From Oscillospiraceae bacterium (GTDB lineage Bacteria > Bacillota > Clostridia > Oscillospirales > CAG-272), in contig SVST01000014.1 in NCBI GenBank assembly GCA_015064155.1, forward strand, positions 5,003 through 69,002: 64,000 nt of DNA, read 5' to 3'. Positions 19,471 through 53,853 of this stretch are shown piece after piece. The notes under the pieces are model-generated. The model made no database searches. It had not been told where the DNA came from and saw only the letters and a program-made list of their open reading frames with translations. The position numbers and the translations under genes were made by a program. Position 1 is the first letter of the stretch; the number at the start of each line of letters is the position of its first letter.

Positions 19471-19494
19471 GGCTTTATCAAAAAAATCAAGCCA

Positions 19495-20987: not shown

Positions 20988-21022
20988 AATCCAAATACTT
21001 CCTTTCTTCGAATTTCACTCTC

Positions 21023-21051
21023 ATTATACAATGTTTTTTTCGAAAAGTCAA
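21023..21051 (-). promoter_or_regulatory. Sigma-70 type promoter for the phosphohexomutase gene
   Basis: Minus strand: TTGACT, 17 nt spacer, TATAAT. Confidence 0.55.
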
Positions 21052-21136
21052 CAAGACGTTTTGCTTTTTTGCGCACGCTTTTTTAACATTATGCGCTTGA
21101 TTTTTCCCGGCGTCCCAATAAGGGAGCGTATCGAAA

Positions 21137-21497: not shown

Positions 21498-21515
21498 GCA
21501 GTGATGTGCTTTTTG
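21477..21515 (-). terminator. Intrinsic terminator of tRNA-Arg (symmetrical, A-tract and T-tract on both sides)
   Basis: aaaaagcacatcactgc-aaag-cagtgatgtgcttttt. Confidence 0.8.
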
Positions 21516-21592
21516 TGGCGCGGCATGAGGGACTCGAACCCCCGACCTTTTGGTTCGTAGCCAAACACTCTATCCAGCTGAGCTAATGCCGC
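21516..21592 (-). tRNA. tRNA-Arg (anticodon ACG), CCA encoded
   Basis: The reverse complement GCGGCATTAGCTCAGCTGGATAGAGTGTTTGGCTACGAACCAAAAGGTCGGGGGTTCGAGTCCCTCATGCCGCGCCA folds as a cloverleaf. It has a 7-bp acceptor stem, anticodon loop CT-ACG-AA, T-loop TTCGAGT, and is 77 nt long. Confidence 0.95.
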
Positions 21593-21620
21593 AAGTCGGT
21601 ACGTTTTTTCGTACTTGCAT

Positions 21621-21649
21621 ATTATACTACTTTTCCCTTGGTTTGTCAA
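21621..21649 (-). promoter_or_regulatory. Consensus sigma-70 promoter driving tRNA-Arg
   Basis: Minus strand: TTGACA, 17 nt spacer, TATAAT, about 25 nt upstream of the tRNA 5' end. Confidence 0.7.
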
Positions 21650-21795
21650 CCCCTTTTTTGAAAAAATAAAAAATATTTTTCAAGCTTGGAAAAGTAAAAA
21701 AACAAAAGAAAAACGAAAATGTTTCGTAAGTAAATTCCTTGACAAGCAGAGCAGAATCGGTTATAATGTGAAAAAACGAAAAGGCTGGATGATTT

Positions 21796-22863: not shown

Positions 22864-22978
22864 TTGCGAATTCCTATAAAAAAGAGGCATTTTGCCTCTT
22901 TTTTGTATGCGATTCTCTTGACAGAAATTTGCTCGTTTGCTATAATGGAAGCAACCAACGGAAAGGAACTTTCTGAAC

Positions 22979-24331: not shown

Positions 24332-24394
24332 AACAGAAGCAAGCGCGATACGTACCGATCGGTGCGTGTCGCGCTTGCCGTTTTTGTTGATTGA

Positions 24395-25300
24395 TCAGCC
24401 AAGTCTTCTTTCGTATAGTTTCATGAAGTCTTCCTCAAGAATCCCCGAAAGCTCCTCGGGGCAGGCGTATTCATCTCCAAATTCCAAATAGCCTCCAAGG
24501 ATGCCCTCGTGGTCGCTGCCTCCCATTTTGTAAAGATTTTTCTCCTCACACAGCTTTTCAAAAAACATCCGGGATTCCTCGCCGCCGCGACCTCTTTCGG
24601 GACGAAAAATGGAGTGTCTGGTTTCAAAGCCCATGACACCGAGCTCGATCAGCTTCTCTGCGTATTCTTCCTTGCCTGCTGGATGTGCAACAATCGGAAC
24701 ACCGCCCGCTTCGCGGATGATGCGAATTACATCTTCGGTGTGTATGTTCTTGGAGCTTTTTCCGGTTACCTCACGGATGTAGTCGCCAAGCCCCAGCTTG
24801 GAGGAAAAATTGGGCTTGAAAAAGACCTCCTCGTATTCCTCGGGCTGATAGATCCCCTTTTTTACCATGACCTCAAACACCTGGTTGTTGCACACGTAAT
24901 CATTGTAAGGGAATGCATCGCGTATCTCCTGCCAGGTCACGCCCTCACGCAAGGATCCGCGCTCCAAGCCCATTTTGAACATCAATTCGGAGCGAGAGGT
25001 TTGGATTGAAGGGAGATATTCCAAAAGCTTTTTCATCTTGGGATGCTCGGGATTGAAGTCAAAGCCCAGCAGATGAAAGGGTACCCCTTGGTAATAGGTG
25101 GAAAACTCGCAGCCGAGAATCGATTTCATTCCCAGCTTTCTTGCAGCTTTATTGATAAAATAGGTGCCGCTGACGGTATCGTGGTCGGTCAGAATAATGC
25201 CTCCGTGTCCCAGATCGTGAGCAATTTGCACCAACTCCTCGGGGGTATAATTTGCATCCGAAAAGCAGGAATGATTGTGACAGCTCGCAAAAATCTTCAT
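24395..25300 (-). CDS. PHP-domain metal-dependent phosphoesterase
   Basis: ATG at 25300 after an AAGGAG SD. CHNHSCFSD and ILTDHDT are PHP His/Asp motifs. Confidence 0.75.
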   Translation of the reverse strand: MKIFASCHNHSCFSDANYTPEELVQIAHDLGHGGIILTDHDTVSGTYFINKAARKLGMKSILGCEFSTYYQGVPFHLLGFDFNPEHPKMKKLLEYLPSIQTSRSELMFKMGLERGSLREGVTWQEIRDAFPYNDYVCNNQVFEVMVKKGIYQPEEYEEVFFKPNFSSKLGLGDYIREVTGKSSKNIHTEDVIRIIREAGGVPIVAHPAGKEEYAEKLIELGVMGFETRHSIFRPERGRGGEESRMFFEKLCEEKNLYKMGGSDHEGILGGYLEFGDEYACPEELSGILEEDFMKLYERRLG

Positions 25301-26869: not shown

Positions 26870-27190
26870 TTGATTCTGCTTTGCGGCTTGATTTTGCTGT
26901 TTTCGACGTTTGGCTTTTGCTGTGCGGTGCGCATGCTGACCGATTGGATTTTTGCTTCCCGTCGGATATGCGTTGCCGTCGAAATTATGGAAAAAAAGGA
27001 CGCGGATATGCTGGATGTGCTGTTGCATGAGGCAGAATCCGCTTTCTTTCGAAAATCCTGTGTTCGCCCCGTTGTGCTGATTTCCTCCGATTTGATGAAC
27101 GGCACGCTGGGAGAGGACGGGGAGCTTTATCCCCGTTATGCGCGTATGCTGGATGCGTACGGCGCGGAGTGTTATTTGATTGATCGGTAG
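26870..27190 (+). CDS. Small hypothetical membrane-anchored protein
   Basis: TTG start 8 nt after a GAGGAGG SD. N-terminal TM segment ILLCGLILLFSTFGFCCAV. 106 aa. The end overlaps the region just before recD2. Confidence 0.45.
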   Translation: MILLCGLILLFSTFGFCCAVRMLTDWIFASRRICVAVEIMEKKDADMLDVLLHEAESAFFRKSCVRPVVLISSDLMNGTLGEDGELYPRYARMLDAYGAECYLIDR

Positions 27191-27221
27191 ATCACAATCC
27201 CAAAAAGAAAGGAGCTTGCAA

Positions 27222-29474
27222 ATGGCGGAGATGTTTGACGAAGGCTTTATGCGCGAGGCGATGGACGATACGGGCTTGTTGCAGCTATCGGGCAGCATCG
27301 AGCACGTGATCTTTTCCAATGAGGAAAACGGTTTTGCCATTTGCGACCTCGGAACCGATACCGATGATTTGATTACGATTACCGGTATTTTGCCCTATAT
27401 CGGTGAGGGGGATCAGGTAACCGTATTTGGCAGATGGGTACATAATCCGAAGTACGGACGCCAGTTTAAGGTGGAGCGCGCCGAAAAGCAACTTCCTGCC
27501 GACCGTGCGTCGATTTTGCGCTATCTTGCATCGGGCAGTATCAAGGGCATCGGACCGAAAACGGCACAGCGCATTGTGGATGAATTCGGAGATGAAGCTT
27601 TTGACGTGATCGAAAACCATCCCGATTGGCTGGCGGAAATTCACGGAATTACCCTCAAAAAAGCGCGGGCGATTTCCGAGGATTTCAAAAACAAGGCGGG
27701 TATTCGCTCGGCAATGCTGTTCTTTCGGGAATATTTCGGTGCCGCGATGACGGTTCGCATCTATAAAAAGTGGGGTGCAAACGCGGTCGATCTGGCAAAG
27801 AAAAATCCCTATCTTCTGTGCGAGGAGATCGAGGGCATCGGCTTTGAACGTGCCGACCGTATGGCGGTACAGCTGGGGCTTGATTTGCATTCGATGGAGC
27901 GTCTTTCGGGCGGTGTTCGCTATTTGCTCAGTACAAACGCGGGGCAAAACGGACACGTGTGTCTGCCGCGTGAAAAGCTTGCGGCAAGTGCCGCACGACT
28001 GTTGGACACCTCCCCCGAGCTTGTCGAGGAGGCAATTTCCGGGCTTTTGAAGGAGCAGAAGATCCGCACGGTCAATTTTGACGGAGTTCCGTTTTTGTAT
28101 GACCGATATCTTTATGAAAACGAAAAATACATTGCGCAAAAGTTGATTTTATTGGATAAGGTATGTCCCGCGATGGACACCGCCAATATCGGCTCGTTTA
28201 TCCAAAAGGAAGAGAGGGATAGCGGGGTACGGTATGCAGAGCTTCAACGGAAAGCGATCTTTGACGCGCTGGAAAACGGCGTGATGCTGCTGACGGGCGG
28301 TCCCGGAACCGGAAAAACCACTGTTGTTCGCGCGTTGCTGCATATCTTTGACAGCATGGGAATGAAGATTGCCTTGTGCGCACCGACGGGGCGCGCGGCA
28401 AAGCGGCTGTCCGAGTCTACCTCCTGCGAGGCAAAGACCATCCACCGGTTGCTGGAATACGGAGGAGAAGAGGGACAGTCGGTGCGCTTTCACCGTGATG
28501 AAAAAAATCTGCTTGACGAGAACGTCATCATCATAGACGAGGCGTCCATGGTTGATAACAATCTGATGAGCGCGCTTTTGAAGGCAGTGAAGCCGGGCGC
28601 GCGGGTCATTATCATCGGGGATTCGGATCAGCTTCCGTCGGTGGGAGCAGGAAACGTATTGCGGGATCTCTTGGAGAGCGAACGCTTTGCAACCGTACGC
28701 TTGAACGAAATTTTTCGGCAGGCGCAAAAAAGCCTGATCGTCACAAACGCGCATGCCATCAATCACGGAGAGATGCCGCGCCTTGACGTCAAGGATAACG
28801 ACTTCTTTTTCTTGCCGCGCGAAACCGACCGAGAGATCGCGCAAACCGTGGCAGATCTTTATCGGAGCCGTCTTCCGAGAACGTACGGCGAGATGGCAGT
28901 GAACGGAACGCAGGTGATTTCGCCCTCCCGAAAGGGCGAAACGGGAACAGAAAACCTGAACGTCGTTTTGCAAAACGCGCTCAATCCGCCGTGCGACGGA
29001 AAGCGCGAGCACCGATTCCGCGAAACGGTTTTTCGCGAGGGGGATCGCGTGATGCAGATTCGCAACAATTACGATTTGACGTGGACGAAGACGGACGGCA
29101 GTACGGGCACGGGGCTTTTCAACGGTGATATCGGGGTGATCGAGCGTATCAACCATGCCGCTGAAAATATGGAAATCCGCTTTGACGACCGAACCTTTGT
29201 GTATGAGTTCAATATGCTGGATGAGCTTGAAATGGCGTATGCCGTGACGGTTCATAAAAGCCAGGGCAGTGAATATCCCATCGTGATTCTCCCCATGGGG
29301 AGTGCTTCACCGATGCTGCTCTCCCGAAATTTACTGTACACGGCGGTTACACGGGCGCAAAACATGGTGATTTTGGTTGGACGCGAGGAGATCGCGAGAA
29401 CGATGGTTGAGAACAACCGTCAATCGATGCGCTATACCGGTCTTTTGTATTGGCTGGAGGATAAGACGTCGTGA
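27222..29474 (+). CDS. recD2: RecD2-type SF1B ATP-dependent DNA helicase
   Basis: ATG at 27222 after an AAAGGAG SD. Walker A GGPGTGKTT, Walker B IIIDEASMV, SVGAGNVLRD, and C-terminal AVTVHKSQGSEY. Confidence 0.85.
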   Translation: MAEMFDEGFMREAMDDTGLLQLSGSIEHVIFSNEENGFAICDLGTDTDDLITITGILPYIGEGDQVTVFGRWVHNPKYGRQFKVERAEKQLPADRASILRYLASGSIKGIGPKTAQRIVDEFGDEAFDVIENHPDWLAEIHGITLKKARAISEDFKNKAGIRSAMLFFREYFGAAMTVRIYKKWGANAVDLAKKNPYLLCEEIEGIGFERADRMAVQLGLDLHSMERLSGGVRYLLSTNAGQNGHVCLPREKLAASAARLLDTSPELVEEAISGLLKEQKIRTVNFDGVPFLYDRYLYENEKYIAQKLILLDKVCPAMDTANIGSFIQKEERDSGVRYAELQRKAIFDALENGVMLLTGGPGTGKTTVVRALLHIFDSMGMKIALCAPTGRAAKRLSESTSCEAKTIHRLLEYGGEEGQSVRFHRDEKNLLDENVIIIDEASMVDNNLMSALLKAVKPGARVIIIGDSDQLPSVGAGNVLRDLLESERFATVRLNEIFRQAQKSLIVTNAHAINHGEMPRLDVKDNDFFFLPRETDREIAQTVADLYRSRLPRTYGEMAVNGTQVISPSRKGETGTENLNVVLQNALNPPCDGKREHRFRETVFREGDRVMQIRNNYDLTWTKTDGSTGTGLFNGDIGVIERINHAAENMEIRFDDRTFVYEFNMLDELEMAYAVTVHKSQGSEYPIVILPMGSASPMLLSRNLLYTAVTRAQNMVILVGREEIARTMVENNRQSMRYTGLLYWLEDKTS

Positions 29475-30208
29475 AACGGGGACTTTGGAAGCGAATCTTA
29501 TTTCCGCCGAAATGTGCCGCATGCCGTGTGTTGATCGATTGGTACGACGGGGATTTGGGGCTTTGCGAGGACTGCATAAAAGGTTGGGAGCTTGCAAAGC
29601 GCGAACCATGCAGCATCTGCGGCGAAGCGGTCAGCCGATGCCTTTGTATGACCGAGGAAATGAAACGCGCGAAATGTGCCGATTTCAGAAAGCTGACCTA
29701 CTATTATCACGCAACGCGCGACCGCGTACAAAATCGCGTGCTGTATGCAATTAAGGAGAACCGTACGCAGGCGACGCACGATTTTTTGGCGCTTGAGCTC
29801 TTGCCGCATCTGCAGGCAGTGATCGACGGCAAGCCGAATGGGGATTTTTGCATCGTATGGTTGCCGCGAAGCCGCGAGGCTAAGAAAAAGTACGACACCG
29901 ATCAAGCCGAGCAGCTGGCGTATGCGCTTTCCCGTCTGAGTGGAATTTCTGCCGTGCGGGCACTGAAGCGCGTGGGCGGAACGGTGCAAAAGGACCTTTC
30001 TGCCAACGCACGGAGCAAAAACGCAAAGCAATCTTTCGCACTGTGCGAATCGGTTGATCTTTGCGGGAAAACCGTTATTTTGGTGGACGATTTGGTTACA
30101 ACGGGGTCGGGTATGGCAGCCGGAGCAAGGCTTTTGCGGAAAAACGGAGCCGCTTTGGTTCATTGCATTGCCGTGGCAAGTGACGATTTGAATCGGGAGC
30201 TTTCTTGA
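29471..30208 (+). CDS. comFC: ComF family protein (ComFC-like zinc finger plus phosphoribosyltransferase fold)
   Basis: N-terminal CxxC...CxxC pairs and the C-terminal PRTase motif VILVDDLVTTGS. GTGA overlap with recD2. Confidence 0.8.
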   Translation: MKRGLWKRILFPPKCAACRVLIDWYDGDLGLCEDCIKGWELAKREPCSICGEAVSRCLCMTEEMKRAKCADFRKLTYYYHATRDRVQNRVLYAIKENRTQATHDFLALELLPHLQAVIDGKPNGDFCIVWLPRSREAKKKYDTDQAEQLAYALSRLSGISAVRALKRVGGTVQKDLSANARSKNAKQSFALCESVDLCGKTVILVDDLVTTGSGMAAGARLLRKNGAALVHCIAVASDDLNRELS

Positions 30209-41425: not shown

Positions 41426-41475
41426 AGAGTCGATCAAAACAAAAAGGAGCAGGCTGCTCCGTGAAAGGACTTATT

Positions 41476-42594
41476 ATGGCAACCGCAAAGAAGGTAAAAA
41501 AGCAAGTTCCAACCGAATTGGATGAAAAGGGAAAACGCGAGGCACTGGCAACAGCCATGTCGCAGATCGAACGTGACTTCGGTGCCGGCTCGATTATGAA
41601 ACTGGGCGAAAACACCCGCATGGAGGTGCAGGCGATTCATACGGGCTCACTTTCCTTGGACTTGGCTCTCGGGATCGGCGGCGTTCCGCGCGGAAGAATC
41701 GTGGAGATCTTTGGCCCCGAATCTTCGGGTAAAACCACGGTTGCGCTGCATATTTTGGCGGAGGTACAGAAGATTGGCGGAACCGCCGCGTTTATCGACG
41801 CGGAGCACGCATTGGATCCCGTATATGCCAAAAATCTTGGAGTCAATATCAACGATCTGTTGGTTTCTCAGCCCGATTGCGGAGAGGATGCACTGGAAAT
41901 TTGCGAGGCATTGGCACGCTCCGGCGCGGTTGACGCGATCGTGGTAGACTCGGTTGCCGCCTTGGTTCCCAGACAGGAAATCGAGGGGGATATGGGACAG
42001 TCGATGGTCGGTGTGCAGGCAAGAATGATGTCGCAGGCAATGCGCAAGCTTTCGGGTGTTATTTCCAAAAGCAATTGCGTGGTGGTATTTATCAACCAGA
42101 TCCGCGAAAAGGTTGGCGTGCTGTACGGCAATCCCGAAACCACCCCCGGCGGACGTGCGCTGAAATTCTTTGCGTCGGTACGAATCGACGTTCGGAAGAC
42201 CGAACAGCTCAAGGATGGAAACGATATCTACGGAAACCACGTCAAGTGTAAGATTGTGAAGAATAAGGTAGCTCCTCCTTTCCGCGTTGCCGAGTTTGAC
42301 ATTCTGTACGGCAAGGGTATTTCGCTTTCCAGCGAGCTTTTGGACTATGCGATCAATCTGGACATCATCAAAAAAAGCGGCTCTTGGTTCTCCTATAACG
42401 GTGAGCGCATCGGACAGGGTAAGGAAAACGTACGAAAGCTGATCGAGGGCAACCCTGCTATGATGCAGGAGATTGAGGAAAAGGTACGCGCCATGAGTGA
42501 GGATGCAAATCTTGCCGGCGGAGAAGATGAATTTGAGGTAGACGACGGCGACGATGAGTTTGATCTGCGTCTTTCGGACGGTGGGGATGAATGA
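41476..42594 (+). CDS. recA: Recombinase RecA
   Basis: ATG at 41476. GPESSGKTT Walker [10 protein letters not shown], and the acidic C-terminal tail. Confidence 0.95.
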
Positions 42595-43259
42595 TCTGTT
42601 ATTCCGAAGCCTTGCAATCGAATAATCTGATTATCACGCTCCGAAGCCTACAGGCACAAAACGAGGGCTCCGAGATCGTTTTGCGAATTCTCTTGGAGTG
42701 CGGTGAAAACCGAGAGGAACGAAGATTGGTTCTCACGGCATCGCAGTATTGCGAGCTGAAGCCGCAAAAGGGCGTTCTTTCGGAGGAAGCCTTTGAGCAG
42801 TTGGAGGCGGCAGCCGAATTGTGCCGTGCCATTCGGGCAGGGGAGAGCCTTATGTCCTATGGCAGTAACACGGCAGGGATGTTGACGCAGAAGCTGTTGC
42901 GACGCGGCTTTATGCGTGCTACGGCAATCGAGGCGGCAGAATATTTAAAGCGCACGGGTGTGATCGATGAAACACGCGACCTACAGCGTGAGCTGGAGAA
43001 GTGTTTGCGCAAGCTATGGGGAGCCAAGCGGATCAATGCACATCTGTGGTCGAAGGGCTTTGATATGGATGCCATGTCGGAGCTTCCTGACTTTTTGTCC
43101 GAAATTGATTTTGAGGAAAATTGCGCAAGCTTGATCCGAAAGCATTACGGTGAGGTGCCGCGTGATCGCGAAGAGCAACGGCGCATGATTGCCTTTTTGA
43201 GCCGTTACGGATACTCGCTGGATGAAATTCGTTGTGCCATGCGCAAGCTGTCCGATTGA
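42591..43259 (+). CDS. recX: RecA regulator RecX
   Basis: Overlaps the recA stop. Helical-repeat protein in the conserved position ([22 protein letters not shown]). Confidence 0.75.
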
Positions 43260-43268: not shown

Positions 43269-43312
43269 AAAAACGGAAACGGGAGAAGCAATTCAGCTTC
43301 TCCCGTTTCCGT
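43269..43312. terminator. Bidirectional intrinsic terminator separating recX from the convergent phage-like operon
   Basis: aaaaacggaaacgggagaagc-aattca-gcttctcccgtttccgtt. Confidence 0.8.
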
Positions 43313-43316
43313 TCGT

Positions 43317-43820
43317 TCAATACAAAAGGTCGTAGTGATCCTTGACGGATTCGATCACGGATTCCGCAACGGGCTCCTCTTCGGGCTCCTCTTCGGGCTC
43401 CTCTTCGGGCTCCTTTTCAGGCTCCTTTTCAGGCTCCGTGGTGGGAGTTGTTTCCGTGGTGGTTTCTTTGCTAAGACTTTGCAGAAGTGACGTCAGCACG
43501 TCGGTATATCTTGCAAAATAGCGGTCGCTCAAGACGTCGTTTTCATCCATTACCAGCATGGCGGCAAGGTAATATTCCGCAATCGGAAGAAAAATATCCG
43601 AGAGAGGGAAATAGCCGTCAAGCTCAACCGTTACCTTCGCAAAGGCAGGTCGCGCACCTTGACCGTTTGCCATGCGATAGCGGTTGTCGGTGGCAGATTG
43701 CTCGGTACAAAAGGTCGCTAAGAGATACGTGGCGCGGTCTTCGTAGTCCGAGGTATCTCCGTTCGTTTCGGTTTCACCGAGCAATCGCAAAGCCGCTTTG
43801 TAAATGTCGCGATAGGTCAT
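43317..43820 (-). CDS. Head-tail adaptor / head-completion-like protein (P22 gp4-like N-terminus) with an acidic Thr/Pro/Glu repeat tail
   Basis: The 167-aa size and the N-terminus RDIYKAALRLLGE resemble P22 gp4 (GDLVRAALRKLGV, from memory). Last gene of the operon. The C-terminus is TTETTPTTEPEKEPEKEPEEEPEEEPEEEP. Confidence 0.45.
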   Translation of the reverse strand: MTYRDIYKAALRLLGETETNGDTSDYEDRATYLLATFCTEQSATDNRYRMANGQGARPAFAKVTVELDGYFPLSDIFLPIAEYYLAAMLVMDENDVLSDRYFARYTDVLTSLLQSLSKETTTETTPTTEPEKEPEKEPEEEPEEEPEEEPVAESVIESVKDHYDLLY

Positions 43821-43829
43821 CGGCTTGCT

Positions 43830-44660
43830 TTAGGCAATGGCGACGGAAAGCGTTACCATTTCGTTGGGGTATACGACCTTTGCACCGTACAGATGCAAGC
43901 CCTTTACGGCATCGGCAAAGCGAAGCTCGGGACGGTAAGCGTCAATTTCGGAGAGCTGCTCGGCAAATGCGATGGCGCGCTTGGTGCGGACGAGGCACTG
44001 GTGCTTGATCGAAGAATCGATTTCGGTTTTGACGATGTTGTTGGAAACGAAGATCTTACAACCCGCAATGCTGCCGATGCAGCCGGTTTCGAGAATTTCG
44101 GTGTTGTCGGAGGAAAGGTTCACCTTTGCCTTCAGAATCAGCTCGGCAACCTCGGGGCTGACCTCAATGACGATATCGTTGGGGTCCGCTACGTTGTTTA
44201 CGTGCAGCTTGGTGCGCGCACTGATCAGCGTGTTCACGATGTTGCTTTCACTTGCCGCGGAAACGTTCAGCGTAATACCCGCCTGGTCATAAAGCTTGTA
44301 TACGTATGCGTCGGCATCGTTTGCCAGCGCGTTTGCCGCATTTTTCATGGCAAGCTCCATCAAGCGGGGCGTTGCCTGAACGCGGTCAACGTCGTCGATC
44401 TGGAAGTTGAAGTACTTTGCCTGGTCGATTGCAAGCTCGCGCACGTTGTCGGAAAGCGTTTCGGGGGCACTCATGTTGACGTTTTTGGTATACTTGGATA
44501 CGCTGACGTTTCCAAGACCGCAAATTTTTACGACGTTGCCTTGTTCGCGAATATCGCCCTCAAATTCACGGTTGCAGTTTGCAACGGCGATGTACTGCTT
44601 GTCCAGCGCGCGATAAAGATTTTCGCTCCATACGGTGGGAATAAAATTGGTAATTGCCAT
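43830..44660 (-). CDS. Major capsid protein (P22-coat-like / HK97-fold family)
   Basis: The N-terminus MAITNFIPTVWSENLYRALDKQYIAVANCNREFEGDIREQGNVVKI matches the IPE(I/V)WS...NRDYEGEI...G(D/N)xVxI pattern remembered for the P22_CoatProtein family. It follows the scaffold gene. Confidence 0.7.
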   Translation of the reverse strand: MAITNFIPTVWSENLYRALDKQYIAVANCNREFEGDIREQGNVVKICGLGNVSVSKYTKNVNMSAPETLSDNVRELAIDQAKYFNFQIDDVDRVQATPRLMELAMKNAANALANDADAYVYKLYDQAGITLNVSAASESNIVNTLISARTKLHVNNVADPNDIVIEVSPEVAELILKAKVNLSSDNTEILETGCIGSIAGCKIFVSNNIVKTEIDSSIKHQCLVRTKRAIAFAEQLSEIDAYRPELRFADAVKGLHLYGAKVVYPNEMVTLSVAIA

Positions 44661-44704
44661 AGTTGTAAATATCCTTTCTTTTTATAAAATAAATTCGGGG
44701 ATCA

Positions 44705-45346
44705 TCAGTGCCACTTTTGCATGGACTGCATGATTTTTTGATAGTTTTTTCGGACCTCAGCGGGGGACATCGATCGAACCTCACCGGGAGAAAAATACTC
44801 GTTTTCCGGTGATTCAACCGATCCCGAGGACCTTTTTTGGTTGTCTGCATTGCTTTTCTCGGCAAGCATTTCGGTATAGGCTCTTTTTTTCTCTGCCAGC
44901 GCATAGGCGGCGGCAATGGGAATTCCACGGCGTACGTCCTGCCAAACGCTGTCGGGAAGTGTGGAGAACGCAGTGTCCGGATAAAGCGTGCGAAACTCCT
45001 CGCATTCCTCTGCCATGCGATTCCAATAGGTGTCCTTTTGTGCCAATTCAGCGCGCAGATGCATCAATTCACTTCGCAGCTGTTCAATTCGCTCTTGCGC
45101 AGTTGTCTCAGAATCGGCGGTAAGATCAGAATCAGAATCTTGCACGGGATCCGCAGAAATTTCCATATTTTCAGCAAAGCTCTCACAACACGTGCAAGAG
45201 GTCGCCGCATCCTTTCCTTCGTCTGAGCCGGCGAGGTCGGATGAAGGTTCTTTTTCTGCTTGCGTCGAACACGCTTCCGATATCGGATCGCCCGATTGTG
45301 CATCCGCCACAGCTTGATTGCCTGTATCCATTTTGTCATCATTCAT
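44705..45346 (-). CDS. Capsid scaffolding protein (putative)
   Basis: Sits between portal and capsid. Acidic N-terminus, a predicted coiled-coil (IEQLRSELMHLRAELAQK), and a C-terminal FSPGEVRSMSPAEVRKNYQKIMQSM scaffold-like tail. Confidence 0.55.
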   Translation of the reverse strand: MNDDKMDTGNQAVADAQSGDPISEACSTQAEKEPSSDLAGSDEGKDAATSCTCCESFAENMEISADPVQDSDSDLTADSETTAQERIEQLRSELMHLRAELAQKDTYWNRMAEECEEFRTLYPDTAFSTLPDSVWQDVRRGIPIAAAYALAEKKRAYTEMLAEKSNADNQKRSSGSVESPENEYFSPGEVRSMSPAEVRKNYQKIMQSMQKWH

Positions 45347-46883
45347 TTTTCACGGTTCCTTTCGATTGAATTTTGCAAAGCAAAGCAGATCGATCGTACA
45401 GCGTTCCCTCGGGCAACAGCTCCACGTAATCCTCCGGAGTGATTTCCTTTGCTTCCAACAGCTTATCGAGCAGAGTGACGGTTGCCGAGGGGGTATATCG
45501 GTCTACCATCGAAATTTTTGCCACTGCGCGAATCAGCTCGCTTTTCAACAGGCGGTAATCGGGACGCTCGGCATGCAAGCTGCCGTCTTTCGCCGTAATC
45601 AGATACTGTTCGGGATGACAGTAGGTACAAAGCATATCTGCCCAGATGGTTGCAAGCTGACCGATACAGCAACAAAATGCCGTGCTGACCTGCCGCAAAG
45701 CAACTTGAGATGCCTGCTGCAATGCCAGAATTGCACTGGTGTTGTTCGCCCTTTCGTCACCGAGCGCGGAATCGGTTGCACCCATCATGCTTTTGGTGTT
45801 TTCAATGACGTTGTTGATCAAGTCCAGATAACCGTCCTGCATCTGTCCCGTTCCAAGCACGGAAACGGCATCTGCCACGTTTCCGCCACCTACCGTAGCG
45901 ATTGCCTGACCAACCTCGTTCGACCAATCGGGAATACGGGACTTATCATAGATGACCTTGGAAAATGCCGTATCATACATATGCTTCATCACCATGGCGT
46001 AAGCCGTATTGATGTATTTTTGGTTGGCAATCAGGTCGCTGACGGGAGCCGTGCCGTGGAAGGATCCCTTGGTGGGCATCCAGTTAAAATAAGCGATTGG
46101 GTAGAGCCGCAGACCCGTGTGAACACGCTTCAGAAGACAGGTACGCGTTGATTTTTCAAAAACGACTTCACCGTCTTCACGGAAGAAGCGGATCAGATAG
46201 GTGGCTTTTTCAGATCCCGAAAGCTCGTGCGCCTCCATGTCAGACGACCGCGCGTCCATCGCGGAATCCCCAATGATGGAATCGATTTCTTCACGCGAAA
46301 GTCCTTGTTCTTTGGCTTCGCGTCGCAAAGAAGTCACCGTGGCACGACCTGCAATCATCACGTAATCCTGCGTTTGCAGGTCGCGCTTGTTCACGTCGGA
46401 AACGAACAGGTCTGTGTTTTCGATCAAATCGGTGTGGATTTCTCCCAAAAACGGTTGACCGTTCTTGTGAGCGCTGTCCCACCAGCAATAAAAGACGGCA
46501 TCACCCGAGATTGCCGCGTTGAGAAGCGCGTTTTGGGAAAGCGCCTTCATGTGATTGCGTTCCCAACGGTAAGCGGCATTTCGGTTGAGCATCTGAATGC
46601 CCGATTCAATCAACTCGCGCGTTGGAGTACTGCTCACAAAGGGAAGCTGCTCGTCGGCATATTGGATGGTCAGGTCACCGGACAGTACGGATCCCACCAG
46701 ATAATCGGTAATTCTGCGAACGACGTTGAAAACGGGACGCGGGAGATCTGCGTTGGTTCCGTACCATTGATCGCCGCGATAGAAGCGTTCGTTGCGCCGT
46801 ACCGTTTCATAAAGCCCGATGCGACGCTTGTATTCCTTGCCGGCTTCATAATCGCGCCAAGCCGAAGTTTGTGTTGTTTTCAT
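45339..46883 (-). CDS. Phage portal protein
   Basis: 514 aa. NERFYRGDQW near the N-terminus and MMGATDSALGDERANNTSAILALQQAS in the core. AAAGGAG SD. Confidence 0.85.
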   Translation of the reverse strand: MKTTQTSAWRDYEAGKEYKRRIGLYETVRRNERFYRGDQWYGTNADLPRPVFNVVRRITDYLVGSVLSGDLTIQYADEQLPFVSSTPTRELIESGIQMLNRNAAYRWERNHMKALSQNALLNAAISGDAVFYCWWDSAHKNGQPFLGEIHTDLIENTDLFVSDVNKRDLQTQDYVMIAGRATVTSLRREAKEQGLSREEIDSIIGDSAMDARSSDMEAHELSGSEKATYLIRFFREDGEVVFEKSTRTCLLKRVHTGLRLYPIAYFNWMPTKGSFHGTAPVSDLIANQKYINTAYAMVMKHMYDTAFSKVIYDKSRIPDWSNEVGQAIATVGGGNVADAVSVLGTGQMQDGYLDLINNVIENTKSMMGATDSALGDERANNTSAILALQQASQVALRQVSTAFCCCIGQLATIWADMLCTYCHPEQYLITAKDGSLHAERPDYRLLKSELIRAVAKISMVDRYTPSATVTLLDKLLEAKEITPEDYVELLPEGTLYDRSALLCKIQSKGTVKNE

Positions 46884-46901
46884 AAAACTCCTTTCTCGTA
46901 T

Positions 46902-48632
46902 TTAGGAATTTGCAAACAGCGCAAGCCTGTGAATGGTCGTGCGAGCCGTTCCGTTGTCGGTCAGCATGAACTTTACCATGCGAAAGCGTCCAAAGCCGAC
47001 ACGACGCTCCATGTAAAGCGGAAGACCGTTTTCGTTGGGCTTGGCGGCTGTCCAAACAAAGCTGCCGGTTTGATCCTCGTCTGCAAGCTTCATTTCCAGT
47101 GTCGTGCCGTAACACGCGGCAACCAGCGAAAACCGCAAGGCGCGCTTGACAAGATCCGGCGAATCAAAGTCCAATACGTCGCTTTTGAAGGATGCCTGGA
47201 TCGGGACGCCGTTGTCGGTCATTTGTGAATCCTCAAACAAAAAGGAACGGTTGCCCTCCGCAAATCCGGAAAGCCCCTCGGACGTCAGGAAAAAGGATGG
47301 AGAAAATCCCGTAAAGGAATACCAATTTTTTTCACTGACCTGATAGACCCAAACGCGGCTTCCGTTTTTGACGTCATAAAACCAGTATTCGTCGTGAGGC
47401 GCGTCATAAAAGACGGTTGCATGCTCGGCAAAGGACTGGGTTTTCAGATCGTCAACGTCGTGCGGAATGAGTGACAATTCAAACGTGTCGGGGTCGGCAG
47501 CCTTTGAGGAAAGCAGATAGATTCCGCCGCGGTTGATGAGAACCGTTTTTCCGTCGCGTTCAACGAAGGGAAGCGGGGCGGTACAGCCGTACCCTCTCAA
47601 AACGGGGTACGAGGAAAGCGTGGTGCTCAGATAATTTCCGTCGTTGGCGTCAATCAGCGAAATTGCTTCCGCACCAAGATCGTGAAATGCGAGCAGGCGG
47701 TCATGGTTTGGAAACAGCGCGGTGATCGGATGGGTGCTGTTTCCGAGTGCCAGCATCATTTCATCGGTGAAATAGAGAGAATCGACGTTAGGATAGGCGG
47801 TTTGACACGAGGCCAGCATATGGTCGGTCACTTGCGTGCTTCCGAACAAATAGGTCGAATCGGGACCGCCGTACAAAAACAGACGTTCCATTCCCTGCAC
47901 GCGGTCGCAATAGACACGGGAGCATTTTTTGATGTCGCCCGGCATGCCTTCCAGGTATAACGTCGTCATACCGATCTCTACCCAGGAAAAGATCTTGGGC
48001 ATCGTTACCCGACGGCTACCCGAGGTGAAAACGTAATCGGTGATCTCTTTTCCGTCGGCAAGAACCGAATCCAAGGACTCTGCCGCATAGGGAAGCTCAA
48101 AAACCAGAGCACCATCAAGGTTTTTGTAAGATAGACGAATGCGCTTGGTCAAGAGATTCGGCGGTTCATGGTAATCGCCCAAACTTGTCGGCGACCAGTT
48201 TTTTCCCAACAAGGGAACGTAAGGCTCAACTGCAAAGAAGCGGGCTTCACTTTCTCGGTAACGGTAAATTTCGGTTCCGTCTAACAGATAAAGGCTTGAA
48301 CGGTAGAAGAAAAAGCAAACCTCCCCGGTTGTCGTGGAAAGCGTGAGTGTTTCTTGAGGGGGACCGTCCTTTTGGACGTAGATTTTGTTACCTGCCGCGA
48401 TGAATCGAGCAGGTTGACCGTTCAGAATGCCTTCCCAAAATCCTCGAACCACGCCGTCGAACGTATGCTGCGCTGTAAAGCCGCAACGTTTTTCCAAAGC
48501 TCCGTCGGCACGAATTCTGAAGTTTTGAAGCTCGTCGCAAGGCAGAAGATTCGACTTTTTTGCTTTTCCGATGCCGCTAAAGCCTTCAAAAATCGCTGAT
48601 TTTTCGACATACTTTGGTTTGATTGTTGGCAT
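46902..48632 (-). CDS. Unknown 577-aa structural-looking protein between terL and portal (possible beta-propeller; nozzle/tail-hub candidate)
   Basis: ATG at 48632, 7 nt after an AAAGGAG SD. Beta-rich with W/Y/F-rich repeated segments. No enzymatic motif recognised. Confidence 0.6.
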   Translation of the reverse strand: MPTIKPKYVEKSAIFEGFSGIGKAKKSNLLPCDELQNFRIRADGALEKRCGFTAQHTFDGVVRGFWEGILNGQPARFIAAGNKIYVQKDGPPQETLTLSTTTGEVCFFFYRSSLYLLDGTEIYRYRESEARFFAVEPYVPLLGKNWSPTSLGDYHEPPNLLTKRIRLSYKNLDGALVFELPYAAESLDSVLADGKEITDYVFTSGSRRVTMPKIFSWVEIGMTTLYLEGMPGDIKKCSRVYCDRVQGMERLFLYGGPDSTYLFGSTQVTDHMLASCQTAYPNVDSLYFTDEMMLALGNSTHPITALFPNHDRLLAFHDLGAEAISLIDANDGNYLSTTLSSYPVLRGYGCTAPLPFVERDGKTVLINRGGIYLLSSKAADPDTFELSLIPHDVDDLKTQSFAEHATVFYDAPHDEYWFYDVKNGSRVWVYQVSEKNWYSFTGFSPSFFLTSEGLSGFAEGNRSFLFEDSQMTDNGVPIQASFKSDVLDFDSPDLVKRALRFSLVAACYGTTLEMKLADEDQTGSFVWTAAKPNENGLPLYMERRVGFGRFRMVKFMLTDNGTARTTIHRLALFANS

Positions 48633-48704
48633 TTGTAAACTCCTTTCTTTAGATTTTTTCGACTTTGTGAGCTTCCCCTGCACAGAGCAAGGAAAAGGGA
48701 ACAC

Positions 48705-50021
48705 TCAAAAAAGTCGGTTTTGATTTTGATTGGGGAAGCGAAAGTGACAGACGGAGGATTGCGGGGCTTCGCATGCGGGGGGACGGCTCATCACCGCGTA
48801 TCGCAATGCCTCGGGTGCGTGTGTTACCGAATGCGGCTCCGATGCGGCATCCTCGGGACGGGTGGGATCACAGAGAAGTGCCGGAAGAGAGTCGATCAGC
48901 GTTTCGCAGGAGGATACGATTTTCAAGGATGGAGAACCGTCGCAAGCCGCAAGACGTTCCCGTAGCACGCGCCAGCCGGGGATACGTCGGTTATCTGCCG
49001 CGCGCATCGGCGGCATACCGACAGTGGCTTGCATGATTTCAAATCCGCTAAGCCCCGTGTCTTGCCTGCGGTTCCAAAGATCGGGGGAGGCTACCGCATA
49101 TTCCGCACCTTGTCCCTGACACAACTCGGCAACCAGCCTCGCCGCCTCGCCGAGTGTGCGGTCCGGCTGACAGATCTCACGCAGAACGAACAGAGTACCG
49201 TATTCGTCCACACCGAGCAGCAGTGCCGCCAGCATATCGAATCCGTAATCAAAAGCAACGAAACGACGCAACGAATGCGGTATCGAAGCCGTTGGGATGA
49301 CGTGCAAGTCGGGGCGAAACTCGGGGAAAAACTGTCCTTCAAAAACATCCCACCGACCGAACAGCCAAGCATCCTTCAGCTTTGGCGGAAGCGTTTCCAA
49401 TTGTCGGACGTATGCGGGATCAGCGAGAAGAAGCGTTGGGTTGTCGTAAACCTTAGCGGGAATAAAGCGGTAGTCATCGGGATTTTCATCCGGGGAGAAG
49501 TCACGGTCGATAAAGAGCCGCTTGACCCATGCATGTCCGATGCCTCCGGGGTTGCAGGTCAGATACATTCGTCGGGGGACGTCACCGACACCGCGCAGAC
49601 AGGCCTTAAAAATAGAGAACTGATATTCGCTCAGCTGCGTTGCCTCGTCGATGGCGATGATGTCGTATTCCTGCCCTTGATAGCGCAGGCAGTCCTTGCT
49701 CGACGCGCAGTACCCCAAAGAAATGGTGCTTCCGTTCGGAAAATACAAGCATTTTTCGCTTTCCCGATAGGATAAAACCGAGGGGTATTCCAACAGCAAG
49801 GGACGAACGTGATTGGCTTTCAGCTCGGCATACGAGCGACGAACCAACAAGCATCGGATTCCCTCGTAGCGCAAGCAAAGCCCCACCAGCTTTCGCCGAA
49901 GAGCCCAGGATTTTCCGCCGCCGCGTGCGCCGCCATACGCCGTATAACGGGCACGGGAATCAAAAAAATCTTGCTGCGGCTTGCTGGGCACACCCTCGAT
50001 TCGAATTTTCTTTTCGGTCAT
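48705..50021 (-). CDS. terL: Terminase large subunit
   Basis: Walker A YGGARGGGKSW, Walker B/coupling IIAIDEATQL, and a C-terminal nuclease-like half. ATGA overlap with terS. Confidence 0.9.
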   Translation of the reverse strand: MTEKKIRIEGVPSKPQQDFFDSRARYTAYGGARGGGKSWALRRKLVGLCLRYEGIRCLLVRRSYAELKANHVRPLLLEYPSVLSYRESEKCLYFPNGSTISLGYCASSKDCLRYQGQEYDIIAIDEATQLSEYQFSIFKACLRGVGDVPRRMYLTCNPGGIGHAWVKRLFIDRDFSPDENPDDYRFIPAKVYDNPTLLLADPAYVRQLETLPPKLKDAWLFGRWDVFEGQFFPEFRPDLHVIPTASIPHSLRRFVAFDYGFDMLAALLLGVDEYGTLFVLREICQPDRTLGEAARLVAELCQGQGAEYAVASPDLWNRRQDTGLSGFEIMQATVGMPPMRAADNRRIPGWRVLRERLAACDGSPSLKIVSSCETLIDSLPALLCDPTRPEDAASEPHSVTHAPEALRYAVMSRPPACEAPQSSVCHFRFPNQNQNRLF

Positions 50022-50449
50022 GAGCCATCCTCCAAAATGTCATGCTCAAAGATCAAACGGACAGCTTCCTCCTCCGCGTCGATTGCTTTTTCGCCGTAGC
50101 CGAAATGCTCCTTCAGATAAGCGTTCACGATTGTGGGAGAACGTGATGAATTGAGCGCTTCATCCTCCAAAACGGCGCACAAATAGGCGAAAAGCGCGGG
50201 ATATTGCTTTTGCAGCTCCGCAACCGCGGACGTACCGCAACCAAGCTTTCCGCAAAATCCGGCTAAGGTCGGAAGCCGCCCCTCCTTTTTGGGGTCGGCA
50301 TCGGGCGGGGGACGGCAGCTTTTCACGTATTGCTTCAGCTTTCGGGGAAGAGAACCGTCTTTTGCCGCAGAGAGCAGTGCGTTTTCACTGCCCTGCAAAG
50401 TCTTGTTCATACCAAGGGAATCACCTCCAATCTTGCTCTGTGCAGGCAT
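50018..50449 (-). CDS. terS: Terminase small subunit (start 50449 or 50410)
   Basis: HTH-like LPTLAGFCGKLGCGTSAVAEL typical of TerS. Translationally coupled to terL. Confidence 0.65.
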   Translation of the reverse strand: MPAQSKIGGDSLGMNKTLQGSENALLSAAKDGSLPRKLKQYVKSCRPPPDADPKKEGRLPTLAGFCGKLGCGTSAVAELQKQYPALFAYLCAVLEDEALNSSRSPTIVNAYLKEHFGYGEKAIDAEEEAVRLIFEHDILEDGS

Positions 50450-50574
50450 AGTTTACAGCAAAAAAACGTGCCATACCCTGACAAAGTGTGCCAAGGTGTG
50501 CCACTTTTTTGCAAAAAAGCGAAGAATGGGGGAGGTGTTTTCGCTTTTCGATTTGCCCGCCATTTCCAATTTCT

Positions 50575-50606
50575 CTTGACACCGTATTCGAAATGTGTTA
50601 TAATCA
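50575..50606 (+). promoter_or_regulatory. Sigma-70 type promoter of the histidine phosphatase gene
   Basis: TTGACA, 17 nt spacer (ccgtattcgaaatgtgt), TATAAT. Confidence 0.6.
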
Positions 50607-51351: not shown

Positions 51352-51885
51352 TTATTCCTCACCCTGGTGCAAAAACAGGACGTTATACTGATCGGCAATT
51401 TCGTTCCAAGTCAAAAGCCCGACGTTTCCGTCCTCATGCAATCGGTTTGCCCGTTGAAACGCTCGAACGGCTTTTTCGGTTTGCTCGTCATAGATTCCCG
51501 TCAGCTCTACCGAGCCGAGTGGCAGGTATTTTTGGTGCAGCTCCAAAAGCATGGCTTGAAGTGCCAGCACCGCAAAGCCGCGGCTGTCGGCACTCATGAC
51601 GTAGGATGTCGGTTCAAGCGGAAACGCGAGAATCGAGCGCGGCGGGGAATTGACCGAAAGCGAGCTTCTGTAATCTCTGTACAGCCGTTCCCACGTGTCA
51701 AGATCGGCATTTCCCGTTACGGGAAGCGAACGCAACCGTTGAAATTCACGCAAGGCTTCTTCTGTTCGCGTATCGAAGATTCCGTCAATGGGGGGCAGCG
51801 GGATGCTTGCTTCGTCGTAGGACAGCTGTCGCAGATAGCGTTGCAGATTGGCGGTTGCAGGTGCGTGATTGGGATGTTGATTCAT
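51352..51885 (-). CDS. Protein with two peptidoglycan-binding (PG_binding_1-like) repeats
   Basis: ATG at 51885 after an AAAGGAG SD. DGIFDTRTEEALREFQRLRSLPVTGNADLDTW and TGIYDEQTEKAVRAFQRANRLHEDGNVGLLTW. Confidence 0.7.
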   Translation of the reverse strand: MNQHPNHAPATANLQRYLRQLSYDEASIPLPPIDGIFDTRTEEALREFQRLRSLPVTGNADLDTWERLYRDYRSSLSVNSPPRSILAFPLEPTSYVMSADSRGFAVLALQAMLLELHQKYLPLGSVELTGIYDEQTEKAVRAFQRANRLHEDGNVGLLTWNEIADQYNVLFLHQGEE

Positions 51886-51906
51886 GTTGACGCTCCTTTG
51901 CATAGG

Positions 51907-53304
51907 TTATGCTCCAACCGTAAAGCCGGGATACTGACCCTCTTGCAGCGTAGACCCGATTGAAAGCTGATTGAAGAGATCGGCAATTGCCGACCAGGTA
52001 ACGGCACCTACGATTCCCGTGGGGGAAAGACCTGCGAGATTTTGAAAGGCAATGACGGCTTCCTCGGTGCGCGGTCCGAAATATCCGGTTGGGTTGACGG
52101 TTGGAATTTCGGGATAGGATGCGGCGATGAGATTCAGATATTCTTGTAAAAGGCGGACGTCCTCGGATTCGGCACCGATGCGCAAGGGGACCCCACCGAA
52201 CGGAATGGCATTTCCTTCAACGTATTCTCTGGGGATGGTGTCCACAATGCCTCGATAGGCGCGGTAGAGTGCGTTCCAGGTCACCTCTCCCACAATGCCG
52301 TCCTCGGGCAGTCCAAAGGTTCTTTGTACGGCACGCACGGCAGAGGTGGTTGACGGACCGAAGCTTCCGTCGATGGCAACGGCGGGGATGGTATCGTAAA
52401 ATTGGGAAACGTAGGTGATAAAATATTGCAGATTGAGAACGGCATTTCCCGTGTCGCCTTCGGCAAGCATACCGGGGTACTGCTGCGTCACCTCTTGCAG
52501 GGTAATTCCCTCGGAATTGAGGTCGTTAAGACGTTTTACTCCAATATAGACGTTTTGAATGTTGTACCAGGTCGCATTTCCGACGATCCCGTCGGGGGTT
52601 AGACCGAAGATTTCCTGAAAGCGTTTGACCGCAGCCGTCGTGTCGGTGCCGAAAATTCCGTCGGTGACTGCAATTTTTGGAATCGAGGGAAAGTTTGAGG
52701 AGATCCGATTCAAGCGGATTTGAACGGTGCGGACGTCGTCGTTTGCAAAGCCCTCTCGCAGGGGAACGGCGGGGGCGCTTGGAGAACCGTCCGAAAAAGG
52801 CGCATCTCTGACAAGTTCAATGTTATCTCCGTAGTAGTAGGTCAGAATTTCAAACGGGGTAAGACCGTCTTCCGCAAGTGCTACCGTGCCCCATTGCGAA
52901 AGCCCGTTGCAGGTAACCGTCGTGCCGTTGCAGTACTGTGCAAACAACGGCTCCACGTTTCCGCTGCGGCGGATGTAGTCGCCGATCAGCTCGCCTGCCA
53001 GTTCACGAATGTTGGAAAATACGTCGCGTCCGTTGACGAAAAATTGGTCGTTTGCGGTGGTAGAGGTAATGTCAAAATCGTAGCCGCGCGTGCGGTAATA
53101 TTCGGTGTAGATGCGGTTGAGCGCGAAGGACATCTGCGCATACATATTGGCACGGATTGCATTTTCGGGCCAGGTTGGGTAGACCTCGCTGGATGCGACG
53201 TTTGCAATGTAATCCAAAAAGGGAATCGTTACGTTTTCTGCGTTTTCGTTCGGCGCACCGAGATGTACGGTGATGGTTTCGGGAATAGAGGGAAGCTCTG
53301 GCAT
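51907..53304 (-). CDS. SpoIID/LytB-like domain protein with three PG_binding_1 repeats (SleC-type cortex-lytic enzyme or lysin candidate)
   Basis: The N-terminal half YIANVASSEVYPTWPENAIRANMYAQMSFALNRIY...DITSTTANDQFF follows the SpoIID pattern. Three DG(I/S)FG...FQ...L..DGIVG..TW repeats are present. Confidence 0.65.
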   Translation of the reverse strand: MPELPSIPETITVHLGAPNENAENVTIPFLDYIANVASSEVYPTWPENAIRANMYAQMSFALNRIYTEYYRTRGYDFDITSTTANDQFFVNGRDVFSNIRELAGELIGDYIRRSGNVEPLFAQYCNGTTVTCNGLSQWGTVALAEDGLTPFEILTYYYGDNIELVRDAPFSDGSPSAPAVPLREGFANDDVRTVQIRLNRISSNFPSIPKIAVTDGIFGTDTTAAVKRFQEIFGLTPDGIVGNATWYNIQNVYIGVKRLNDLNSEGITLQEVTQQYPGMLAEGDTGNAVLNLQYFITYVSQFYDTIPAVAIDGSFGPSTTSAVRAVQRTFGLPEDGIVGEVTWNALYRAYRGIVDTIPREYVEGNAIPFGGVPLRIGAESEDVRLLQEYLNLIAASYPEIPTVNPTGYFGPRTEEAVIAFQNLAGLSPTGIVGAVTWSAIADLFNQLSIGSTLQEGQYPGFTVGA

Positions 53305-53319: not shown

Positions 53320-53766
53320 TTACAGATTGGGGGCGGAGGACTCAAAGAAACGCTGACCGTCCGGGGTACGGGAGTCGGTTCGTCCGTTTTCGGGTAATGG
53401 GATCAGGATTGCGGGCTGAATTGCCACGATGCCGTCAAAAATAGGGACGTTCTGATAAATTGCGTCGCTATATCCCTCTAAATGCACCTCGACGTTGTAG
53501 GTCGAAAACGGCTTTTGCGAACCGGGCTGCATGGATTCCGTGCGGTTGGGGGCAGGGAGTGACAGACGCTCTGTCCGTCCATCCGAGCCCGAAACGAGCG
53601 ATGCGATCACGTCCCCTCTCCCCGCTGTCAGATCGGGGGGATAGGAACGGATATTCACCCGCGCGCCCTCCAGTGGGATTGCACCGCGCGCTGTGCTCAC
53701 CTGAACGATCAGATATCCCTCGCCCGTGAACGGTTGCAAGGGATTGACTTGTGTTTCTTGATTCAT
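53320..53766 (-). CDS. Carboxypeptidase-regulatory-like (Ig-like beta-sandwich) domain protein
   Basis: ATG at 53766 after an AAAGGAG SD. GYLIVQVSTARGAIPLEGARVNI...SGSDGRTERLSLPAP...YNVEVHLEGY is a CarboxypepD_reg-like pattern. Confidence 0.5.
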   Translation of the reverse strand: MNQETQVNPLQPFTGEGYLIVQVSTARGAIPLEGARVNIRSYPPDLTAGRGDVIASLVSGSDGRTERLSLPAPNRTESMQPGSQKPFSTYNVEVHLEGYSDAIYQNVPIFDGIVAIQPAILIPLPENGRTDSRTPDGQRFFESSAPNL

Positions 53767-53853
53767 AAGGCAGCTCCTTTTTCGAAATCGCCGAAATTCG
53801 GCTTCTTTCAAAGGATATGTTTGCGCAAACAAAAGGTGAATCGTGCAGATATA

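Follow-up and report, generated by a model that had tools for sequence, protein, structure and literature searches.

A seven-gene minus-strand cassette beside recX and recA

We describe a cassette of seven co-directional minus-strand open reading frames (ORFs) at positions 43317-50449 of a 64-kb stretch of Oscillospiraceae bacterium contig SVST01000014.1 (hereafter the window, meaning the whole 64,000 nucleotides analysed), at the same coordinates as in a preliminary description of this DNA. With its promoter the cassette spans 7.2 kb, and its gene order is terS-terL-X(nozzle)-portal-scaffold-MCP (major capsid protein)-gene 7. Downstream lie recX and recA in convergent orientation, and upstream a divergent histidine phosphatase gene. 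From the evidence below it is close to certain that these genes form a module for capsid, packaging and nozzle that derives from a podovirus, is under selection and is inherited vertically. Its features, in the direction of transcription, are as follows.

50468..50503, minus strand: phased-repeat array, four hexamers 10 bp apart, unique in the window
50438..50455, minus strand: core promoter, -10 box and GCACAG element, conserved across loci
50018..50410, minus strand: TerS, probable small terminase subunit, 130 aa (position before terL, weak GP3_package match)
48705..50021, minus strand: TerL, large terminase subunit, 438 aa (Terminase_6N, Terminase_3, phrog_979, Walker A motif)
46902..48632, minus strand: X, predicted podovirus-type tail hub/nozzle, 576 aa (AlphaFold2 model with Foldseek, profile match, hhalign)
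45339..46883, minus strand: portal protein, 514 aa (P22_portal, SU10_portal, phrog_156)
44705..45346, minus strand: probable scaffolding protein, 213 aa (between the portal and MCP genes)
43830..44660, minus strand: MCP, 276 aa (Phage_capsid_4, phrog_267)
43317..43820, minus strand: gene 7, conserved small protein (conservation; matches PHROGs of unknown function only)
43272..43313, no strand assigned: convergent terminator hairpin common to the cassette and recX (stem energy, U-run)

The genes are tightly packed, with a 4-nt terS/terL overlap (50018-50021) and an 8-nt portal/scaffold overlap (45339-45346) as first described, although the earlier limit of 44 nt for all gaps is exceeded between terL and X (72 nt). 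Shine-Dalgarno sequences of the AAAGGAG type precede X and portal, whereas the MCP gene, which had been credited with one as well, has a weaker AAAGGA. X starts at the ATG at 48632, preceded by AAAGGAG, and encodes 576 aa rather than 577. The position and likely identity of terS stand, but not its start, which had been placed at 50449, an ATG that abuts the conserved -10 box. The most likely start is instead the ATG at 50410, which follows a GGAGGTG Shine-Dalgarno sequence, fits the layout of the promoter and yields 130 aa in agreement with the NCBI annotation MBE6602257.1.

Packaging and capsid proteins

Profile matches agree with the preliminary assignments of TerL, portal and capsid. TerL carries the Walker A motif YGGARGGGKS and matches Terminase_6N (5e-8) and Terminase_3 in Pfam and phrog_979 in PHROG (2.6e-45). 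The portal protein matches P22_portal (2.5e-13), SU10_portal and phrog_156 (2.4e-23), and the MCP matches Phage_capsid_4 in Pfam and phrog_267 (1.5e-48); a search of NCBIfam, N4-gp56 included, returned no match for the MCP at E ≤ 0.01. The MCP has 5,796 homologues, the closest of which (72-92% identity) are found on chromosomal contigs of up to 247 kb in metagenome-assembled genomes of gut Clostridia. The terS product is a probable small terminase subunit, with a weak GP3_package match that is sub-threshold for Pfam (E = 0.0039).

Scans of Pfam and PHROG gave no match for the gene between portal and MCP, which probably encodes the scaffolding protein. Its C-terminal half is homologous (hhalign 97-98%) to the same-position gene of two related elements, one on virome scaffold MT836592.1 (1-9588; L081) and one in the genome of Acidaminobacterium chupaoyuni (CP176394.1, 1929669-1950505; L083), to which we return below.

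Protein X is predicted to be a tail nozzle

The third gene had been described as encoding an unknown protein, and the operon as one of head and packaging genes with no tail. We modelled protein X with AlphaFold2 from a 29-sequence homologue alignment and obtained a confident, all-beta model (pLDDT 88.9, pTM 0.85). When this model was compared with the Protein Data Bank (PDB) using Foldseek, ranks 1-29 were all tail hub, nozzle or muzzle chains of podophages, with a probability of 1.00 and target-normalised TM-scores of up to 0.70. These included Pa223 (9nwi_Y, 1e-19) and P22 gp10 (8u10/8eap, about 2e-16; 8eap_D, 5e-16), as well as cyanophage A4, Sf6 gp8, SU10, T7 gp12 and the phiCrAss001 muzzle. 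The model thus shows the beta-propeller-based nozzle fold of the P22 gp10/T7 gp12 class. Independently of the structure model, the sequence profile of the X family matches 9nwi_Y (E = 0.0046), and the family is a full-length homologue (hhalign 98.8%) of the L083 gene that comes next after an SU10_adaptor-like gene. At 50% identity the nozzle family comprises 661 clusters (E ≤ 1e-30). Protein X is, on its modelled fold, a podovirus tail hub/nozzle. The cassette therefore encodes capsid, packaging motor and central tail hub and is not head-only, contrary to the earlier view.

The cassette is conserved, constrained and vertically inherited

A one-genome-per-species scan yielded 347 matching capsid-gene stretches, from which we fetched the best 80 loci, all from uncultured gut Clostridia. 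The seven genes occur in the same order in essentially every one of these loci with enough sequence, and the nozzle gene always lies between terL and portal. We found terS in 61 of the 80 loci, the remainder being truncated contigs, and gene 7 in 78. All-versus-all clustering of flanking ORFs showed that only the seven cassette genes are common across loci, with recX-recA shared by about 20. The block is thus conserved in relatives, and its link to recX holds in about a quarter of them. Other recurrent flanks are likewise housekeeping genes and encode HPr kinase (HPrK), phosphopantetheinyl transferase (PPTase), an AP-endonuclease-family protein, Obg, Der and a pyrophosphatase, and the recurrent flanking-gene clusters contain no integrase, replication, lysis or other tail genes by Pfam annotation.

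Intactness, counted over fully covered loci only, was nearly complete (terS 51/52, terL 60/60, X 64/65, portal 67/69, scaffold 68/75, MCP 79/79, gene 7 73/75). Two loci depart from the common layout. In L075 no nozzle gene was detected in the fetched contig, where terL (3052-4350) and portal (4453-5979) lie about 100 nt apart, and in L016 gene 7 is apparently absent between the end of the MCP gene at 10047 and recX at 10421; these loci may be natural knock-outs or relocations.

Purifying selection acts on all seven genes. Ratios of nonsynonymous to synonymous substitution rates (dN/dS), estimated by the Nei-Gojobori method from the less-saturated genome pairs, were lowest for terL (0.06-0.09), MCP (0.07-0.19), portal (0.08-0.13) and terS (0.11-0.14), and somewhat higher for X (0.18-0.20) and gene 7 (0.16-0.27); the scaffold gene evolves fastest of the seven (about 0.4) and is still constrained. 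The dN of the block genes correlates with that of the adjacent recA (rho 0.74-0.90), and block dS is comparable to the dS of recA and recX in the same genome pairs. Distance clustering of TerL, portal and MCP combined groups the loci by context, as recX-linked, HPrK/AP-endonuclease-linked and PPTase-linked, and even distant members remain near genes of the window neighbourhood (asd, metK-recD2, dagK). Because divergence and context track the host lineage, we conclude that this is an old, vertically inherited locus with local rearrangements rather than a mobile element or a recent remnant.

Within the window, annotation found no integrase, replication, lysis, lysogeny-control, tape-measure or other tail gene outside the cassette, and no att-like direct repeats flank the cassette, as the preliminary description had noted; there is no adjacent tRNA. 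The mild drop in GC reported there was not borne out, as the computed GC content of the cassette shows no anomaly. The lack of tail-fibre, lysis, integrase and replication genes is what a decaying, functionless prophage remnant left by a recent deletion, one of three readings first proposed, would also display. That reading is refuted and retains next to no probability: the seven genes are intact in many species, as the earlier argument from uninterrupted ORFs had anticipated, dN/dS is far below 1, the promoter spacing is kept to the nucleotide (see below), and a complete prophage occupies this position in none of the relatives.

A phased-repeat promoter upstream of terS

The conserved TGNNAC-array promoter upstream of terS is a new feature of the locus. 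In the window it consists of four repeats (TGGCAC, TGGCAC, TGTCAG and TGGCAC) phased at exactly 10 bp, followed after 12 nt by a -10 box (TAAACT, 50455-50450) and then a GCACAG element (50443-50438). Across loci, the arrangement of TAnAAT, about 5-7 nt and GCAC(A/G)G is kept regardless of the repeat word, and the distance from the first repeat to the -10 box is exactly 48 nt in 51 of 59 loci. The phased TGNNAC array is the only one in the 64-kb window (0.04 expected from shuffles), and none was found elsewhere in about 1.1 Mb of related loci. The repeat word itself varies by clade (TGGCAC, TGAGAC, TGGCAG, TGGGAC, TGGTAC and others) and follows the block phylogeny. Such clade-specific wording implies a co-evolving DNA-binding activator, and the array is presumed to be the binding site of a late activator acting in trans.

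Late activators of the Ltr family (RinA, ArpU, LtrA-C) bind 2-4 direct repeats upstream of terS in Gram-positive phages, where the activator gene lies immediately upstream of its repeats (PMC3753634). The cassette promoter resembles this activator-site architecture; unlike those phages, the cassette has no adjacent activator gene, and domain annotation of the window ORFs revealed no regulator or activator gene near the promoter. Regulation in trans is expected for a domesticated element. We also considered a second locus or a regulator inside the window; there is no other phased array, and the unknown ORFs are without informative domains. A sigma-54 promoter reading of TGGCAC-N-TTGC was rejected, since GG and GC are spaced 11 nt apart instead of 10 and the word is clade-variable and one of four phased repeats. 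The repeats upstream of the L083 element are unlike the TGNNAC array.

At the other end of the cassette, the bidirectional terminator proposed on the recX side is well supported. A strong hairpin with an 18-19 bp stem starts 3 nt past the last stop codon (-39.5 kcal/mol, z = -10.6) and is shared with recX; on the cassette transcript a U-run comes after it. The divergent histidine phosphatase gene, whose placement upstream of the cassette was also described correctly, has a perfect TTGACA-17-TATAAT sigma-70 promoter with TG extension (50576-50604, plus strand) and probably starts at ATG 50635, not GTG 50488.

Gene 7 in the cassette and its relatives

Gene 7 had been labelled a gp4-like adaptor, a label for which neither profile nor structure searches give support. 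Profile searches over 36 members against Pfam, functionally annotated PHROGs and PDB profiles returned no match, and the PHROGs that gene 7 does match are all of unknown function. Comparison with SU10_adaptor-like proteins and with the neighbours of L081 and L083 gave an hhalign probability below 1% for adaptors, and the single-sequence AlphaFold2 model was too poor for fold comparison (pLDDT 47). Because of its gene position and the need to bridge portal and nozzle, the product is possibly a head-completion or adaptor protein. In relatives it is about 130 aa long, and the window copy carries an extra 36-aa Pro/Glu-rich insertion (EPEKEPEKEPEEEPEEEPEEEP) encoded by a 12-nt tandem repeat at 43358-43417. 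None of the 35 homologues in the alignment has this insertion, and a 163-aa version occurs on a near-identical contig.

Relation to phages and known DNA-packaging systems

No complete phage with the seven-gene module was found in IMG/VR or among GenBank phages. The MCP matches GenBank phages at ≤44% identity only, mostly siphoviruses. In IMG/VR, relatives above 50% identity all lie on contigs of ≤10 kb that carry the same cassette, and full-size viral contigs have the MCP alone in common with it, at ≤45% identity. In a full-text literature search, no account of such a seven-gene family came up.

Among published systems the nearest is FpGTA, a gene transfer agent (GTA) of Faecalibacterium prausnitzii (Borodovich et al., Nat Commun 2026; PMC12946183). 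FpGTA I is a 10.5-kb operon of ten genes in the order terS-terL-portal-(Prp/scaffold)-MCP-x-adaptor-nozzle, and a second locus of 5.5 kb encodes a fibre, a receptor-binding protein (RBP), a holin and an endolysin; the particles are about 40 nm, have no visible tail and contain 8.4-8.9 kb of host DNA, and the authors leave open whether this DNA is delivered (PMC12946183). Both FpGTA and the cassette are chromosomal, podovirus-derived head and packaging operons of gut Oscillospirales with no integrase or replication genes. Both encode TerS, TerL, portal, scaffold, MCP and a P22-gp10-like nozzle. The FpGTA portal is RCH50851.1, and the FpGTA nozzle (RCH50846.1) is annotated against 8eap, the same PDB entry as a match of X. 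The two differ in that the cassette has seven genes in 7.2 kb as against ten in 10.5 kb, with the nozzle gene between terL and portal and not last, and in that an adaptor is recognised in FpGTA, along with a second locus for fibre, RBP and lysis, neither of which was found for the cassette in the 64-kb window or the related loci.

The virome scaffold MT836592.1 was considered as a possible FpGTA and was found to belong instead to the Acidaminobacterium-like family of L081 and L083. In addition to the scaffold and nozzle homologies given above, this family shares 49% identity with the cassette in TerL, 34% in MCP and 29% in portal, and it has an FpGTA-like gene order with the SU10_adaptor-like gene before the nozzle gene. 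L081, 9.6 kb long and labelled 'Bacteriophage sp.', comes from a human faecal virome. The copy in A. chupaoyuni, a cultured species, is interrupted by host genes for pantothenate kinase and an energy-coupling factor (ECF) transporter, and no portal was called between its TerL and scaffold/capsid genes; DUF722, PAS-GerE and HTH genes lie upstream of that element, and XkdX and further structural genes downstream.

RcGTA, CcGTA and other viriforms resemble the cassette as vertically inherited clusters of phage structural genes that are under purifying selection, lack replication and integration modules and are presumably controlled by an activator encoded elsewhere. Alphaproteobacterial GTAs are siphovirus-like with long tails, are encoded by clusters of about 15 kb and package 4-8 kb, less than their own locus. 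In contrast, the cassette is podovirus-like and unrelated in sequence, and its locus is so small that it might package itself. With the tail machines of P22, Sf6, T7 and SU10 the cassette has in common the portal family (P22_portal, SU10_portal) and the nozzle fold; unlike in those phages, no tailspike or fibre, needle or plug, or ejection protein was found, and gene 7 matches no recognised adaptor family.

Capsid-forming phage-inducible chromosomal islands (cf-PICI), which Alqurainy and colleagues described in 2023, are reportedly mobile and said to carry an integrase, a regulator, a replication module and att sites. Like the cassette, they encode TerS, TerL, portal and MCP themselves and do without most tail genes; unlike them, the cassette has a predicted tail hub, and integrase, regulator, att sites and replication module were searched for with none found. 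They are a precedent for another of the readings first proposed, a capsid-forming satellite. In the form considered here, the satellite would build its own capsid and hub, receive activator, fibres and lysis from a helper phage and package itself preferentially. Such a satellite would fit the promoter, which resembles an Ltr-type late-activator target with no activator encoded in cis, as well as the size of the cassette, since 7.2 kb could fit a capsid of FpGTA size (8.4-8.9 kb), and the occurrence of related fragments in virome-derived collections. Its mobility is at odds with the locus: neither integrase, excisionase, replication gene, att repeat nor tRNA target was found. The repeat word follows the host clade, the context follows the block tree and the divergence matches that of recA, all of which indicates long-term vertical rather than mobile behaviour. 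Moreover, in 80 of 80 fetched related genomes the cassette is present with no accompanying phage genes. We therefore consider a satellite quite unlikely.

The cassette as a candidate GTA core

Conservation, intactness, dN/dS and a genomic context that tracks the host lineage best support the remaining reading of the preliminary description, a domesticated GTA-like locus. We think it probable that the cassette forms the central operon of a host-controlled GTA-like 'viriform' that stems from a podovirus and has been domesticated and inherited vertically, and only a little less so that it acts as a gene transfer agent. What we infer for the latter comprises the formation of particles, their content of random host DNA, delivery to other cells and recombination through RecA. 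Judged from the gene content, the particle would be a minimal podovirus-like head with hub, as in FpGTA.

In such a system, an activator encoded in trans would bind the four phased TGNNAC repeats in place of a -35 element and turn on the single operon, probably in a subpopulation of cells. Scaffold, MCP and portal would then build a small procapsid, which TerS and TerL would fill by headful packaging, and nozzle X, perhaps via gene 7, would close the portal to give a stub tail. If the system has fibres or a receptor-binding protein, a plug or lysis functions at all, these would be encoded elsewhere in the genome.

Several observations weigh against a GTA. Neither the 64-kb window nor the surroundings of the cassette in any locus yielded a fibre or receptor-binding protein, a needle or plug, an ejection protein, a holin or an endolysin; nor was a second locus for fibre, RBP, holin and endolysin found in the window or at distances of up to 10 kb from the cassette in the loci. 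No protein that would fit the 12-fold portal to the 6-fold nozzle was recognised by profile or structure searches, and the assignment of TerS is weak. The 7.2-kb cassette with its promoter might fit its own capsid, which would break the classical GTA criterion of a head smaller than the encoding DNA. Finally, the FpGTA MCP (RCH50849.1) is named as N4-gp56 family, whereas the cassette MCP is Phage_capsid_4 with no NCBIfam match; this comparison, made by annotation, suggests that the two belong to different sequence families.

Selection and conservation show that the locus has some function, not which one, so the particle could instead serve the release of DNA for biofilm or nutrition, the killing of other cells, or a packaging linked to the cell cycle or sporulation. 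That no adsorption device was found in the window is consistent with such functions, as is the fact that delivery is left open even for FpGTA (PMC12946183). On the other hand, terminase, portal and nozzle are under strong constraint, as expected for packaging, retention and release through a channel, and a pure storage compartment would need no nozzle. We regard a domesticated particle with one of these other functions as unlikely.

A bolder possibility, and a very unlikely one, is that the cassette is a complete, minimal and self-sufficient DNA-transfer system in which the nozzle would be both gate and adsorption device and the 7.2-kb locus would fit its own capsid. If so, it would be an element between GTA and virus, with neither replication nor integrase genes, that would spread vertically and by whole transduction, with rescue through RecA recombination of the host; this could explain why the cassette is retained beside recA-recX in one clade.

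According to a recent report, no other route by which capsids mobilise DNA in the human gut is as common as GTA-like packaging of bacterial DNA. Most of this activity falls in Ruminococcaceae, Oscillospiraceae and Christensenellaceae, and its genes are known only for Faecalibacterium, the loci in other members of these families not having been found (PMC12946183). As a candidate GTA core, the cassette is the most compact described, and it offers a concrete and widespread candidate for these orphan activities in gut Clostridia. The rigid promoter signature can be used as a genome-wide key to the remaining regulon and the activator, which opens both the regulation of a podovirus-type GTA and its minimal set of parts to direct testing.

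Other genes of the window

Outside the cassette, the genes of the window that could be annotated with Pfam are housekeeping or ordinary cellular genes, among them trmFO/gidA, rnc, smc, ftsY, leuS, metK, recD2, a comF-like gene, mreB, asd, mutY and others, and several ORFs have no domain match. Four genes of DNA uptake or recombination (recD2, the comF-like gene, recA and recX; 27180-30208 and 41461-43259) lie within 20 kb of the cassette. The placement of recX-recA beside the cassette is confined to one clade, about 20 of the 80 loci, which makes a functional link tentative.

Beyond the histidine phosphatase gene, two minus-strand genes (51352-51903 and 51907-53304) encode proteins rich in PG_binding_1, one with a weak SpoIID-like N-terminus, and a 170-aa ORF without known function lies beside them at 53320-53832. 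We considered these PG_binding_1/SpoIID-like genes (51352-53304) as lysis genes of the cassette and rejected them, as they have no counterpart in the fetched flanks of the 80 other loci.

Two patches of low GC content (0.44-0.47), at 16000-19500 and 21000-24400, contain ORFs without a domain match (213 aa, 696 aa on the minus strand, and 450 aa). They adjoin a gene for a GH28-like beta-helix protein and a tRNA-Arg (21516-21592), and their ORFs could be horizontally acquired surface or glycan genes.

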